This document shows, piece by piece, positions 2,453-5,462 of a DNA stretch of 10,513 nucleotides. The DNA lies in IMG/VR virus record IMGVR_UViG_2703718834_000006; one strand, given 5' to 3'. Below the pieces are notes generated by a model. The model was not told the origin of the DNA. It made no database searches and saw only the letters and a list, made by a program, of their open reading frames with translations. Source of the stretch: a virus (taxonomy: Duplodnaviria > Heunggongvirae > Uroviricota > Caudoviricetes). Position 1 is the first letter of the stretch; each line of letters opens with the position of its first letter. The position numbers and the translations under genes were made by a program.

Positions 2453-3094
2453 TCAAAGCAACGGGATTTCAAGGTAAACTGCGGTTGCCAAAATACTAAC
2501 ATCTTCATTTCTAACAAGAATATTAGGATACATTGGGTTTAGGGATACTAGGTTTGTCTCTATTTCACCAATGTAAACCTGTTTGAAGCTCAATATTTGC
2601 TCTTTATCCAAAGATGCTATTACATAATCTTTGCTTTTAGCTTTTACTAGAGGGCTGAACGTGACAACCGATCCTCTGGGAAAGCTAATACCTGAACTTG
2701 TAGTCATAGCTTCACCTTCAATAGTCAATGCAAATGCAGAGTCACCAACATTGTATATTGCCGGATGAAATCTAGACGATGAATGTTCACCTGTGTTTAG
2801 GTAATGCATAACTTCATCTAGTTTGAGGATTGGTATTTGCTTTACCAGAACGTCAGGCATGACGTTTTTTGTTCCCGGCCCCTGGCCTTCACCCAGAGCT
2901 AACCACTCAGCCGTAGTGCCTAATGCGTTGGCTAATGCCTGCAATACACGAAGCCGTGGTTTAGCCTCACCACCCTCGTATGCAGCTATTTGACGTTGAA
3001 CAACACCAGCTAATTTTGACAACTGCGCCTGCGTCATACCCCTCGACTGTCTTGCCAGAGATACTCTTGATGGGAATTGATCGTCAAAATTCAT
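2453..3094 (-). CDS. Lambda-CI/LexA-like repressor: N-terminal XRE-type HTH plus C-terminal S24-peptidase-like domain with Ser-to-Ala at the nucleophile position (predicted non-cleavable)
   Basis: 213 aa. N-terminus (residues ~10-65) has a Cro/C1-type HTH pattern (MTQAQLSKLAGVVQRQIAAYEGGEAKPRLRVLQALANALGTTAEWL). C-terminus aligns with lambda CI from memory: DSAFALTIEGEAM vs DSAFWLEVEGNSM, ISFPRGSVV vs PSFPDGMLI, SFKQVY..LVSLNPMYP vs [22 protein letters not shown]. Lys171 corresponds to CI K192, but the Ser149 position is Ala129. No A-G or C-G dipeptide in the linker. GGTGA ribosome-binding site upstream of the ATG at 3094. Confidence 0.8.
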   Translation of the reverse strand: MNFDDQFPSRVSLARQSRGMTQAQLSKLAGVVQRQIAAYEGGEAKPRLRVLQALANALGTTAEWLALGEGQGPGTKNVMPDVLVKQIPILKLDEVMHYLNTGEHSSSRFHPAIYNVGDSAFALTIEGEAMTTSSGISFPRGSVVTFSPLVKAKSKDYVIASLDKEQILSFKQVYIGEIETNLVSLNPMYPNILVRNEDVSILATAVYLEIPLL

Positions 3095-3193
3095 TAGTTC
3101 ACCATAAAAAATTCATTGACTCATACTGAGTGTGAGTGAATAATCAAACCTCAAAAAGTGAGATTATGAGTTTTTCAAAAACAGGAGTGCATA
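3095..3193. promoter_or_regulatory. Divergent promoter/operator region between the CI-like gene and arc-ant; candidate Pant-like promoter TTGACT(3116-3121)-N17-AATAAT(3139-3144) with overlapping palindrome and tandem repeats
   Basis: Rightward -35/-10 pair with 17-bp spacing. Palindrome ACTCA-TAC-TGAGT at 3119-3131 overlaps the -35 and spacer, followed directly by tandem TGAGTG TGAGTG (3127-3138), with further GTGAG/TGAG copies at 3158-3170. Operator-like arrangement inside a core promoter, as with the Arc/Mnt operators at P22 Pant. Identified by eye, not scored. Confidence 0.4.
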
Positions 3194-3367
3194 ATGACTG
3201 AAAAGATATCTTCCATCAAGCCGCGTCAGGTTCGTTTTACAGAAAAGGTTGATTCACATATCCGCGAATCAGCAAAAAGATGCCATAGGTCAATTCAGGC
3301 AGAGATAGCTTATCGAATGGAGTTATTAATGAAACTTGAGGCAAAGGGCGATGTTGTCATCCAATAA
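3194..3367 (+). CDS. arc: Arc-like ribbon-helix-helix repressor (57 aa); absent from the supplied ORF track
   Basis: ATG at 3194 preceded by AGGAG (3183-3187) at 6-nt spacing; stop TAA at 3365-3367. Translation: MTEKISSIKPRQVRFTEKVDSHIRESAKRCHRSIQAEIAYRMELLMKLEAKGDVVIQ. Layout matches an RHH fold (N-terminal beta strand then two helices) and resembles P22 Arc (..RSVNSEIYQRVMESFKKEGR..) in the RS..EI and K-G motifs. Lies immediately upstream of ant, as in P22. Confidence 0.6.
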   Translation: MTEKISSIKPRQVRFTEKVDSHIRESAKRCHRSIQAEIAYRMELLMKLEAKGDVVIQ

Positions 3368-3369
3368 AA

Positions 3370-3440
3370 ATAGTGAAGCCCGGCAGTGCGCGAACACAAA
3401 CCGGGCCTCTATGTCAGTAACCGTATGCAAGGAAACTAAC
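3370..3440 (-). ncRNA. Candidate sar-like antisense RNA covering the arc-ant spacer and the ant ribosome-binding site (inferred)
   Basis: On the minus strand an extended -10 element TGcTACAAT (complement of 3447-3455) would start transcription near 3440. It would run through the complement of the ant Shine-Dalgarno/start (3429-3443) and end at the GC-rich hairpin 3378-3406, which on this strand is followed by TTCACTATTTTTA. Predicted length about 70 nt, the size and location of the P22 sar RNA. No expression evidence. Confidence 0.3.
3378..3406. terminator. GC-rich stem-loop in the arc-ant spacer; likely intrinsic terminator for leftward (antisense) transcription and possible attenuator of arc read-through
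   Basis: GCCCGG (3378-3383) pairs with CCGGGC (3401-3406); an inner GTG/CAC pairing is possible within the loop. A T-rich tract follows only on the minus strand (complement of 3365-3377). Confidence 0.35.
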
Positions 3441-4067
3441 ATGAATATTGTAGCAAAATCAGATTACAACTTCCACGGAGTTGAGTTGGTGCCCACCCGT
3501 GATATGCATGGTGTTTGGTTTACATCATCTAATATTGCATCTGCACTTAAATATGCAAATAGCCGTGCAGTAACAATGATTTATAACAAGTATAGCGATG
3601 AGTTTAGCGCCGGGATGACTCAGGTACTCGAAGTGAGTACCTCAGGAAATTATCGCAAAAAAGTGCGAGTTTTCTCACTACGCGGTGCCCACCTAATCGC
3701 GATGTTTGCTCGCACTCCGGTAGCCAAAGAGTTCCGCCGCTGGGTGCTGGATATTTTGGATCGGCAGGCAGAATGCTCACCGATTGCAAAACAGTTCACT
3801 GACGAAGAGCTGGTTAATCTCTGCTACTTACAATTGTGGATGGAGAAGAGTCAACAAATGTGCAAACACATCTACCCAGGAATGAAGCAAATTGGTTCTG
3901 AGCTTTCAGGAAGGATTTACGATATTGCATATGAGACTCGCTACATGTCAGAAGAAACCAAGAAATCACTTCTTCGTGAAATGAAGAATCTTGATACCAA
4001 CAATTTTGTCGTAAAGAACGCTCAGCCAATGCTGGCAAAACTGCGCGGCGAGGAATGGATTCATTGA
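3441..4067 (+). CDS. ant: Antirepressor Ant (Bro-N / AntA-type N-terminal domain)
   Basis: ATG at 3441 with AAGGAA ribosome-binding site at 3429-3434. The track's 3336 start is a TTG that overlaps arc and is rejected. N-terminus YNFHGVELVPTRDMHGVWFTSSNIASALKYANSRAVTMIYNKY...VRVFSLRGAHLIAMFARTPVAKEFRRWVLDILD matches the Bro-N/AntA antirepressor pattern (FxF..., WF.a.dva.aL, rG.lia.f..tp.a.efrrWv). Sits downstream of arc. Confidence 0.8.
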   Translation: MNIVAKSDYNFHGVELVPTRDMHGVWFTSSNIASALKYANSRAVTMIYNKYSDEFSAGMTQVLEVSTSGNYRKKVRVFSLRGAHLIAMFARTPVAKEFRRWVLDILDRQAECSPIAKQFTDEELVNLCYLQLWMEKSQQMCKHIYPGMKQIGSELSGRIYDIAYETRYMSEETKKSLLREMKNLDTNNFVVKNAQPMLAKLRGEEWIH

Positions 4068-4154
4068 TTGGTGCACAGGACGGCGCAAAAGAAAACCGCC
4101 AGTGTGCTGCTGGCGGCCTATGTCACACCCTTACTACCACATAAGGAATGCCTA

Positions 4155-4883
4155 ATGACTTTTAAGAATGTAGCAAACATCGGATCCGTTGTCACGGATA
4201 AAACCATTGACAGCCAGCGCCTGCTTGAGATGGTAAATCAGGCTCGTAGACAGTGCGGTGAGCCGGAGGTTCGTAATAACAAATTCATCGAGAAAATTGA
4301 AGATGAATTGGATGGAGAGCACTACACAAAAAGTGTAGTGCAAAAAGCGAACAAAACTTCGATGGTTATCATTGAGATGTCAATCAAGCAAGCATTGCGA
4401 GTTGCCGCTCGCGAGTCAAAAGCCGTTCGCCGCTCACTGGTAGACCAACTTGAAAGCATGCAAGAAGCGCACATTAAAAGCGGTAAATCAGCGAGTGGAC
4501 TTGTTGAGTATCGTCAAGCGCGAACATTGAAAATGACGGTTGAAGCTGTTACCAATCTGTTCGATCTGATGCCAAATCTTGCGCCTGAGGCAAAGCAGAC
4601 AGCGGCAGCAAGTATAATCAACCCGCTCGTTGGTTTTAATGCAATACCTCTTCCGGCAATAGAAGAGCATTACTACTCAGCAGGGGAGGTTGCAGAGCAG
4701 CTTGGAGTAACGGCCAACAAGATTGGTCGCATTGCTAACGCAAACAACCTCAAAACTGAGCAGTACGGGAAGTTCTTCCTGGATAAATCTGCGCATTCCA
4801 GCAAACAGGTGGAAGCATTCCGCTACAATGCGGAAGGCGTTAAAGCACTACAACACCTGATTCATGGGAGTAATGTTGCATAA
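4155..4883 (+). CDS. Hypothetical phage regulatory protein with C-terminal KilAC (ANT)-like HTH segment; possible second antirepressor-type protein
   Basis: ATG at 4155 with AAGGAA at 4143-4148. The track's 4068 start is a TTG directly after the ant stop and is rejected. The C-terminal stretch YYSAGEVAEQLGVTANKIGRIANANNLKTEQYGKFF resembles the KilAC-domain motif of phage antirepressors (..tEiAkelGvsa..lnk.L...g......g). The N-terminal 150 aa are not recognised. Confidence 0.5.
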   Translation: MTFKNVANIGSVVTDKTIDSQRLLEMVNQARRQCGEPEVRNNKFIEKIEDELDGEHYTKSVVQKANKTSMVIIEMSIKQALRVAARESKAVRRSLVDQLESMQEAHIKSGKSASGLVEYRQARTLKMTVEAVTNLFDLMPNLAPEAKQTAAASIINPLVGFNAIPLPAIEEHYYSAGEVAEQLGVTANKIGRIANANNLKTEQYGKFFLDKSAHSSKQVEAFRYNAEGVKALQHLIHGSNVA

Positions 4884-5104
4884 TGGCAAAGAAAAAATAT
4901 GGCATTATGCCGCCAAGAATCAAAGGAAGAGCTAGGGTAAAAGGTGATGCTGGAAGGTATCACATTCTTGGAGTTCTGTGGCATGAGAGAGCTTTAATTT
5001 TAAGTAGACCTCATGGGTACATTGAAAAGGTATCTATAGATAGAGTAGAGATTCTTCCCCTTACACCTGAAGAAGAAGAAACGTACGGACTTTTTGATAA
5101 CTAA
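4883..5104 (+). CDS. Hypothetical small basic protein (73 aa), translationally coupled to the upstream gene
   Basis: Its ATG overlaps the upstream TAA in ATAATGG (4881-4885). Basic N-terminus (MAKKKYGIMPPRIKGRARVKGDAGR) and acidic C-terminus (TPEEEETYGLFDN). Followed by a strong intrinsic terminator. No family recognised. Confidence 0.45.
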   Translation: MAKKKYGIMPPRIKGRARVKGDAGRYHILGVLWHERALILSRPHGYIEKVSIDRVEILPLTPEEEETYGLFDN

Positions 5105-5110
5105 CCAACT

Positions 5111-5137
5111 AAACCCGCTTAATCGCGGGTTTTTTCT
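5111..5137 (+). terminator. Rho-independent terminator ending the arc-ant-orf-orf operon; hairpin overlaps the mnt stop codon on the opposite strand
   Basis: AAACCCGC-TTAATC-GCGGGTTTTTTCTTTT: stem CCCGC/GCGGG flanked by A/T pairs, followed by a run of six T (5130-5135). On the minus strand only TTT follows, so termination is probably mainly rightward. Confidence 0.75.
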
Positions 5138-5376
5138 TTTCTAAGGATATCAGCCGCAACTTCTTTTACTCGTTCCGAGATTAATGAGGCCAGCCTCTCT
5201 TCTTCATCACGATACCCGCTTACAGGTGGTGGTTTGGAGAGTGATTCTTCCATCGTAGCCACAATTTCGGAATTGATAGACCTGTTATTCATTTTTGCAC
5301 GCTGTTTAATCTTGGCGTGCAACTCGTGCGTAAGCCTCAAGTGGAACTGCGCCTCATCGTATTTGCTGTACATCAT
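5119..5376 (-). CDS. mnt: Mnt-like ribbon-helix-helix repressor (85 aa)
   Basis: MMYSKYDEAQFHLRLTHELHAKIKQRAKMNNRSINSEIVATMEESLSKPPPVSGYRDEEERLASLISERVKEVAADILRKEKTRD aligns along its length with P22 Mnt as recalled (..PHFNFRMPMEVREKLKFRAEANGRSMNSELLQIVQDALSKPSPVTGYRNDAERLA..). Start is ATGATG at 5376/5373 with a GAGG ribosome-binding site. The 217-aa track ORF (5119-5772) is an in-frame upstream extension and is rejected. Confidence 0.8.
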   Translation of the reverse strand: MMYSKYDEAQFHLRLTHELHAKIKQRAKMNNRSINSEIVATMEESLSKPPPVSGYRDEEERLASLISERVKEVAADILRKEKTRD

Positions 5377-5462
5377 CAATGCCTCACCAAATGGGTGGAA
5401 TGGCATCGTAAAACCTACTGTACAAATCAACAATCGTACCGTTTCGGTATGCAACAAATACC

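Follow-up and report, generated by a model that had tools for sequence, protein, structure and literature searches.

Sar is a classic antisense regulator that is usually viewed as peculiar to phage P22 and its closest kin. In P22 the output of the antisense RNA is reported to be coupled to sense transcription through the convergent promoter Pant (promoter interference), and details are known of how the pairing between sar and ant RNA is initiated. Schaefer and McClure are said to have devoted a paper to P22 sar RNA in 1997. Work published in 1987 by Liao et al. and by Wu et al. (cited in PMC2629481 and PMC3134472) established sar as a 68-69 nt antisense repressor of ant, and the RNA was seen again by RNA sequencing in 2026 (PMC13397905). 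Here we characterize a sar-like antisense unit at the start of an ant-like antirepressor gene in the virus record IMGVR_UViG_2703718834_000006. The analysed stretch of 10,513 nt, called the window in the following, comes from a P22-like (Lederbergvirus) prophage of E. coli and spans the region from a gene 16-like DNA-transfer gene to the tailspike and integrase genes.

Villafane et al. 2008 (PMC2629481) termed this region of P22-like phages the 'ant moron'. They also list Sar among the genes of epsilon34, another P22-like phage (PMC2629481), in which Sar and 'ant moron' are placed as at our locus, with the homologue of gene 16 on one side and the tailspike gene on the other. For the moron type of E. 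coli HS they described an absence of arc and a control that is probably unlike that of P22 (PMC2629481). The interval 3100-3600 of the window shares 99.4% identity with the prophage of E. coli HS, matches one clinical isolate at 100%, and was found in 77 of 5,426 complete E. coli genomes. In contrast to the published description, a predicted sar layer and a small gene at the arc position are present here, so that part of the P22 logic appears to be retained in a prophage type that has been read in the literature as being without P22-style control.

The sar-like unit and its comparison with P22

From sequence comparison we consider it very likely, with a probability of about 0.85, that the minus strand of 3367-3476 holds a functional, diverged homologue of P22 sar RNA. 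The unit and its target comprise the following elements:

3471-3476, minus strand: -35-like hexamer GTGGAA, read from the sequence, 18 bp upstream of the -10 element, 3/6 matches to consensus
3447-3455, minus strand: extended -10 element TGcTACAAT, Psar-like, read from the sequence, embedded in ant codons 3-5 (ATT GTA GCA)
3367-3440, minus strand: predicted sar-like antisense RNA of ~74 nt, from the match to covariance model R1 (see below) and the fold, with predicted ends
3413-3440, minus strand: 5' hairpin from the fold, stem GUUAGU/ACUGAC, its loop carrying the anti-Shine-Dalgarno UUCCUU (3434-3429)
3375-3409, minus strand: terminator hairpin from the fold, with 10 pairs, an internal loop and 4 further pairs
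3363-3374, minus strand: U-rich tail ACUAUUUUUAUU, read from the sequence, 6 U in 10 nt
3429-3443, plus strand: target, read from the sequence, with the Shine-Dalgarno AAGGAA (3429-3434) and the ATG (3441-3443) of the ant-like gene

The extended -10 element is present inside the 5' end of ant, where a sequence-only reading of this DNA had placed it: the reverse complement of 3447-3455 is TGCTACAAT, i.e. TGn followed by TACAAT, which agrees with TATAAT at 5/6 positions. That reading had also proposed a GC-rich hairpin at 3378-3406. The inverted repeat GCCCGG/CCGGGC (3378-3383 and 3401-3406) is found there, but it forms the core of a larger terminator hairpin reaching from 3375 to 3409. For this hairpin, -23.9 kcal/mol is predicted on the minus strand vs -15.5 kcal/mol on the plus strand. 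Its T-rich tail is restricted to the minus strand, as had been noticed before: ACUAUUUUUAUU follows the hairpin there, while the tail of the plus-strand hairpin, CUCUAUGUCAGU, is not U-rich.

The 5' end of the RNA can be placed at G3440 by the P22 register, and the 3' end would lie inside the U run 3370-3366. As in P22, this run extends over the upstream stop codon, here that of a gene for a 57-amino-acid (aa) protein. A leftward RNA of about 70 nt complementary to both the Shine-Dalgarno and the start codon of ant had been expected. The predicted RNA is of similar length and complementary to the Shine-Dalgarno, but it probably leaves the start codon uncovered, since with +1 at G3440 the ATG likely falls outside the RNA. 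For the minus-strand RNA running from 3441 to 3366 (76 nt) two hairpins with an energy of -33.8 kcal/mol were obtained (z = -5.4), and 0 of 200 shuffled sequences were equally stable. The plus-strand leader folds at -24.2 kcal/mol (z = -2.3) with the Shine-Dalgarno in a hairpin loop.

The P22 record annotates sar (as misc_RNA), a terminator and a promoter at the arc-ant junction, where the sequence-only reading had located the P22 sar RNA. The window, JEP4, SPN3UB and P22 can be aligned through three blocks: TTGAAGCCC...GGGCyTC, which provides the hairpin base (GAAGCCC...GGGCyTC is common to the window and P22), GTCAGTAA and AACATGAATAnTnTAGCAA. The last block holds the -10 element in the same codons of all four, with AGT ATA GCA in P22 and ATT GTA GCA in the window. 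The -10 elements TGcTACAAT of the window and TGcTATACT of P22 Psar are both followed by ATTCAT and a G at +1. In both cases this G is the base directly before the complement of the ATG, such that the distance from -10 to +1 is equal. The -35 element of P22 Psar, GTGTTA, matches the consensus at 3/6 positions, equal to the window hexamer. A global alignment of the window sequence with P22 sar gives 65% identity, compared with 49 ± 3% for shuffled sequences (maximum 58%), and the sequences from loci L098 and L106 are intermediates that bridge the two. P22 sar folds into two hairpins of the same shape (-29.5 kcal/mol, z = -5.3). The anti-Shine-Dalgarno in its 5' loop is CUCC, where the window has UUCCUU, and its tail AACUUUACGC contains fewer U than that of the window.

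Overall both units sit between a small upstream regulator gene and ant, have their promoter inside the first ant codons with an identical phase of the extended -10, and specify an RNA of ~70 nt with two hairpins. The second hairpin is in both an intrinsic terminator, predicted as such for the window, that lies next to or across the stop codon of the upstream gene, and Pant, or its counterpart in the window, converges at a distance of ~300 bp. They differ in the terminator stem, which is a perfect one of 32 nt in P22, whereas that of the window takes 35 nt and has an internal loop and a different upper stem. They differ also in sequence, the window RNA being only ~65% identical and escaping the Rfam sar model RF00262. 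Compared with P22 immI, moreover, the flanks are replaced: the upstream protein has no BLASTP similarity to Arc, the Ant protein carries a Bro-N domain at its N-terminus and resembles P22 Ant only C-terminally, and a C2/LexA-like repressor stands for Mnt. A sar-like unit that aligns with P22 within such a setting supports the earlier suggestion that an antisense layer has been kept in an otherwise rearranged module. Promoter register, fold and strand bias would thus have been preserved in the unit while both flanking proteins were replaced.

What we infer for the locus of the window, namely transcription, exact ends, translational repression and biological timing, would then take the following form. 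A weak sigma-70 promoter, GTGGAA-18-TGcTACAAT, which would depend on its extended -10 and lies within ant codons 3-12, would start leftward transcription from G3440. Intrinsic termination would occur at the hairpin 3409-3375 and the U run over the stop codon of the upstream gene. In the RNA, the 5' loop UUCCUU would face the ant Shine-Dalgarno AAGGAA, which itself would be looped in the mirror-image hairpin of the messenger RNA (mRNA). Pairing, probably loop-to-loop first, would proceed to a full duplex over the ribosome-binding site of ant and thereby block Ant translation. Convergence with the Pant-like promoter ~300 bp upstream would couple the antisense output to sense transcription, as in P22.

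Conservation within the sar family and alternative explanations

Related junctions were collected by two routes, namely via the upstream 57-aa protein, which is unbiased for RNA and promoter, and via the DNA pattern CATGAATANTNTAGCAA at the ant start. The pattern produced many chance matches in unrelated viruses, from which the real junctions were cleanly separable by fold energy and covariance model. Because pattern-found loci are biased for the -10 element, promoter statistics were taken from the protein-anchored loci. A scan of genome contigs with the 57-aa protein provided two loci, in Klebsiella and Yersinia. MAFFT and RNAalifold applied to the raw alignment (A2) gave a poor 7-pair consensus with misaligned hairpins, such that a covariance-model alignment was used instead.

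The covariance model R1, built from 29 diverse junctions (alignment A2), found 64 sites, each of them antisense to a junction that precedes an ant-like gene and none (0) in the chance loci. In the window it matched the minus strand of 3363-3440 with 71.6 bits (E ~1e-11 to 1e-13), while the next best site reached 11.5 bits. P22 scored 56.3 bits. A comparison with P22 sar by covariance model or BLASTN, as the sequence-only reading had proposed, gave a divided result: RF00262 did not match the window and blastn did not reach P22, but the family model recovered both RNAs. The sar family so defined contains 54 distinct sequences from phages and prophages of Escherichia, Salmonella, Klebsiella (K. 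grimontii) and Yersinia (Y. vastinensis).

The structure is conserved throughout this family. In the covariance-model alignment the terminator helix is 99.4% paired over the 54 distinct homologues and shows changes on both sides at 6/9 pairs. Pairing in the 5' helix (helix 1) amounts to 82%, and 3/6 of its pairs covary; two sequence subtypes blur the alignment here. Covariation of the whole structure amounts to 0.363 vs 0.213 ± 0.009 for shuffles, with 0 of 500 reaching the observed value, and slid partners gave at most 0.17. An alignment-free comparison revealed that all 54 distinct RNAs are more stable than their complement (mean -30.4 vs -20.8 kcal/mol), and many stem G-U pairs of the minus strand become A-C mismatches on the plus strand. 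This strand bias together with the minus-specific G-U pairs indicates that the selected structure is that of the minus strand.

The promoter is conserved in register. In 33 of the 34 distinct upstream regions the extended -10 element keeps a distance of exactly 6 nt to a purine at +1, with variants that include TGCTACAAT, TGCTATACT, TGTTAAACT, TGCTACAGT and CGCTATACT, and in most relatives a TGGAA -35-like element (usually TTGGAA) is located 18 nt upstream of it. At the loci found via the 57-aa protein, A[GTC]T followed by [GAT]TA is kept in 15/15 distinct Ant N-termini, among them MNIVA, MTSLT, MNTVA, MKSIA, MSIA, MNSVH and MNSIA. Both wobble bases within the -10 element are invariant in all of these, for which even the rare codons ATA and TTA are in use. 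The fixed wobble bases and the rare codons point to selection at the nucleotide level beyond the need of the protein.

Several observations weigh against a functional sar homologue. The U tract begins only 4 nt past the terminator stem, and the -35 element is poor (3/6, 18-bp spacer). RF00262 gave no match to the interval 3150-3650 of the window, neither at gathering (43 bits) nor at E<=10, while P22 as positive control scored 97.8 bits. The consensus of RF00262 is nearly the P22 sequence itself, such that the model looks narrow, and this narrowness looks to be the cause for the window RNA falling outside the curated family. A blastn search against the phage collection with the window (E<=1e-5) did not recover P22, which speaks against homology. 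A simple scan for sigma-70 promoters and terminators flagged neither the sar-like promoter nor its terminator. This silence carries no weight, as on P22 the experimentally defined Psar and sar terminator were also missed. No non-coding RNA is annotated at the locus in RefSeq for E. coli HS. The shuffle statistics overstate independence, since the family members share descent and the alignment was fitted to the model. The -35 sequence TTCCA shares bases with a Phe codon that is conserved in the Bro-N domain, such that -35 conservation is inseparable from protein constraint, and the promoter could owe some of its conservation to constraint on the Ant N-terminus. Taken by itself, the -10 motif is also compatible with chance, with 3 occurrences of TGNTAYAAT in the window vs 1.46 expected.

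That the unit is merely a relic, descended from sar with a promoter that no longer usefully fires and signals without function, appears improbable to us. The promoter is no worse than the proven one of P22 (TACAAT vs TATACT, TGn in both, 3/6 for the -35 in both) and the U run is better. The block occurs in identical copies in ~30 independent viral contigs besides its presence in the 77 E. coli genomes, and -10 wobble positions as well as stem pairs are maintained across deep divergence. A relic would account for the -35 with just 3/6 matches and an 18-bp spacer, for the lack of an annotated non-coding RNA, and for a module that is unlike P22 in having a C2/LexA-like repressor for mnt and an unrelated protein at the arc position.

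Very improbable is an element of the plus strand, for which the hairpin of the ant mRNA leader would act as a processing or stability site or hide the Shine-Dalgarno, the -10 motif being a by-product of the N-terminal codons. The plus strand does fold with the Shine-Dalgarno in a loop, as described above, but this fold is the weaker one in 54/54 members, loses the minus-strand G-U pairs to A-C mismatches and lacks the U tract, which is confined to the minus strand. Ant N-termini indeed share M-x-[ITS]-[VIL]-A, yet the -10 wobble bases are fixed across differing amino acids, for which protein constraint is no explanation. A mirror-image mRNA structure is moreover expected of any cis-antisense pair and is thus compatible with the sar-like RNA. 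A chance pairing of a -10-like motif with a hairpin is effectively refuted: although the motif frequency by itself is unremarkable (likewise TGNTANNNT occurs 24 times vs 30 expected), each element is matched in the alignment with P22 sar, R1 gives 71.6 bits vs 11.5 for the next site of the window, and covariation is found throughout the family. The combination of elements, their position and their conservation in relatives are beyond chance.

For the preferred interpretation as a sar homologue this means that the sar design would be far more widespread and durable than the curated family suggests. The Rfam model is too narrow to catch such RNAs, which are therefore missing from genome annotations and from analyses of prophage transcriptomes. 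With a broader one, dozens of variants would be labelled in phages of Escherichia, Salmonella, Klebsiella and Yersinia.

Viral contig L110 contains two R1 matches, at 1478-1554 and 5378-5452 (both on the minus strand), which are ~3.9 kb apart, such that sar-type units can recur within one genome. Its second copy has no obvious -10 in the usual register.

Other antisense RNAs resemble the unit in architecture. Against Rfam, the window RNA (3372-3443, minus strand) aligned weakly with SymR over its full length with 21.8 bits (E = 0.09) at a gathering threshold of 61, and P22 sar (L003, 3016-3087, minus strand) likewise weakly with ctRNA_pGA1 over its full length with 24.3 bits (E = 0.012) at a threshold of 45. 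SymR and the plasmid ctRNAs are likewise short two-hairpin cis-antisense RNAs against translation starts, but they share neither synteny nor a sequence relationship with the window RNA. Membership in SymR was rejected, as 21.8 bits is far under 61.

A predicted second antisense unit in the antirepressor operon

A further predicted unit precedes the gene at 4155-4883, which follows ant and encodes a second antirepressor-like protein:

4167-4195, minus strand: second antisense promoter GTGACA-17-TGcTACATT (GTGACA 4195-4190, TGcTACATT 4175-4167), found by the scan with 9/12 plus TG, inside codons 5-14 of gene 4155-4883
4086-4160, minus strand: second predicted antisense RNA of ~73 nt, from the sequence and covariance model R2, spanning the ATG (4155-4157) and Shine-Dalgarno of gene 4155-4883
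4093-4119, minus strand: second terminator hairpin with the tail UCUUUUG, flagged by the scan

Read on the plus strand, the stop codon of ant (4065-4067) is followed by AAAAGAAAA, the hairpin CCGCCAG-n7-CTGGCGG, the Shine-Dalgarno AAGGAA and the ATG 4155-4157. The -10 element is located on xxT GTA GCA codons (codons 5-7) in the same codon phase as in the sar-like unit, and both units end at a minus-strand terminator directly past the preceding stop codon.

JEP4, the Klebsiella phages phiKp_30 and KP12, and SPN3UB all keep these elements; in SPN3UB the downstream gene is a different one and the promoter lies 27 nt further in. Covariance model R2 detected the unit in the window (54.2 bits), E. 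coli HS, JEP4, phiKp_30, KP12 and SPN3UB, while in P22 it is absent according to this model. Among 48 distinct post-ant regions, which were sampled through sar matches only, 30 contain the second unit. Most of the remaining 18 have a 300-aa Ant gene of the P22 type with a plus-strand terminator behind it. In 20 distinct relatives the terminator helix is 100% paired, with changes on both sides at 3/8 pairs and with minus-specific G-U pairs. Its covariation is 0.334 vs 0.152 for shuffles (reached by 0/500), and slid partners gave <=0.17. In a scan with the hairpin only, the promoter signature appeared 48-63 nt downstream in 10/18 matches with an A-rich 5' flank, compared with 0/215 of the others. 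Rfam holds no family that matches the second unit. R1 did not match the second unit nor R2 the sar-like one, so that we make no claim of common ancestry for the two.

We regard it as reasonably probable that each gene of the antirepressor operon is guarded by a cis-antisense RNA of its own, independent of the others, with the sar-like RNA acting on ant and the second RNA, whose predicted promoter is a strong one, on 4155-4883. Should the second unit prove real, modules of this kind would follow a general design rule, in which every antirepressor-type gene is gated by an antisense RNA. What is new about the sar-like RNA is its being a diverged homologue of the known sar, while the second unit is apparently undescribed: a literature search of incomplete coverage found no description of it, which is weak evidence for novelty.

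The genes downstream of the second unit belong to at least four families that are unrelated to one another (PHROG 1726 antirepressor, Rha-like, KilA-N-like and an SPN3UB-type regulator), suggesting that the antisense blocks serve as recombination joints of a mosaic module. The sar block behaves similarly at its edges. The antisense promoter lies within the first 41 nt of ant (3439-3479). This segment shares 97.6% identity with Salmonella siphophages that have unrelated flanks, and JEP4 (L001), elsewhere 98.4% identical to the window, diverges right past 3479; the antisense block is thus located at mosaic boundaries. On its other side the sar block is found after many different upstream gene ends. 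From these sequence relations, the conserved antisense blocks look like mosaic recombination joints.

Neighbouring genes and further sites

The genes and the sense promoter around the two units are the following:

2453-3094, minus strand: repressor with helix-turn-helix (HTH) and Peptidase_S24 domains (Pfam), C2/LexA-like, divergent from the ant operon
3116-3144, plus strand: Pant-like promoter TTGACT-17-AATAAT, found by promoter scan, upstream of the sense operon
3194-3367, plus strand: gene of the 57-aa protein, arc position (Pfam; PHROG 10182, function unknown)
3441-4067, plus strand: ant-like antirepressor gene, 208 aa (Pfam Bro-N and P22_AR_C; PHROG 245 and 5060, 'anti-repressor Ant')
4155-4883, plus strand: gene of the second antirepressor-like protein (PHROG 1726)
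4883-5104, plus strand: open reading frame (ORF) of 73 aa
5119-5376, minus strand: Mnt/Arc-family gene (Pfam, PHROG)

The Pant-like promoter converges on the antisense promoter at a distance of ~300 bp, in a geometry like that of P22. The divergent position that mnt holds in P22 is not occupied by mnt but by the gene 2453-3094 for the HTH and Peptidase_S24 protein. A potentially self-cleaving repressor of the S24 type that is divergent from the ant operon suggests an SOS-linked control of the antirepressor operon.

The upstream gene had been taken for arc by the sequence-only reading. The 57-aa protein shows no similarity to P22 Arc in BLASTP, and it is not recognisable as Arc by Pfam or PHROG either, the label coming from position alone. 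Its only Pfam match, to ParD_like (ribbon-helix-helix), is below threshold, and a single-sequence AlphaFold model consists of one long helix. The protein is 81-100% conserved across prophages of Escherichia, Klebsiella and Yersinia.

The Ant protein is 29% identical to P22 Ant over 69 C-terminal residues only. RefSeq gives the same start at 3441 for the gene in E. coli HS, and since the family alignment agrees with RefSeq we used this start. The reading frame is extendable upstream to an in-frame ATG at 3411-3413 and a TTG at 3336, neither of which has a Shine-Dalgarno. The Mnt/Arc-family gene 5119-5376 sits 2 kb rightward of the gene 2453-3094, in opposite orientation to the ant operon. Just within the 73-aa ORF the minus strand carries a third terminator-like site (4915-4900, tail TATTTTTTCT) and a weak TGaTACCTT at 4962-4954. 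The minus strand of 4890-4962 may thus specify a further short antisense transcript, which would leave the ribosome-binding site at 4883 uncovered.

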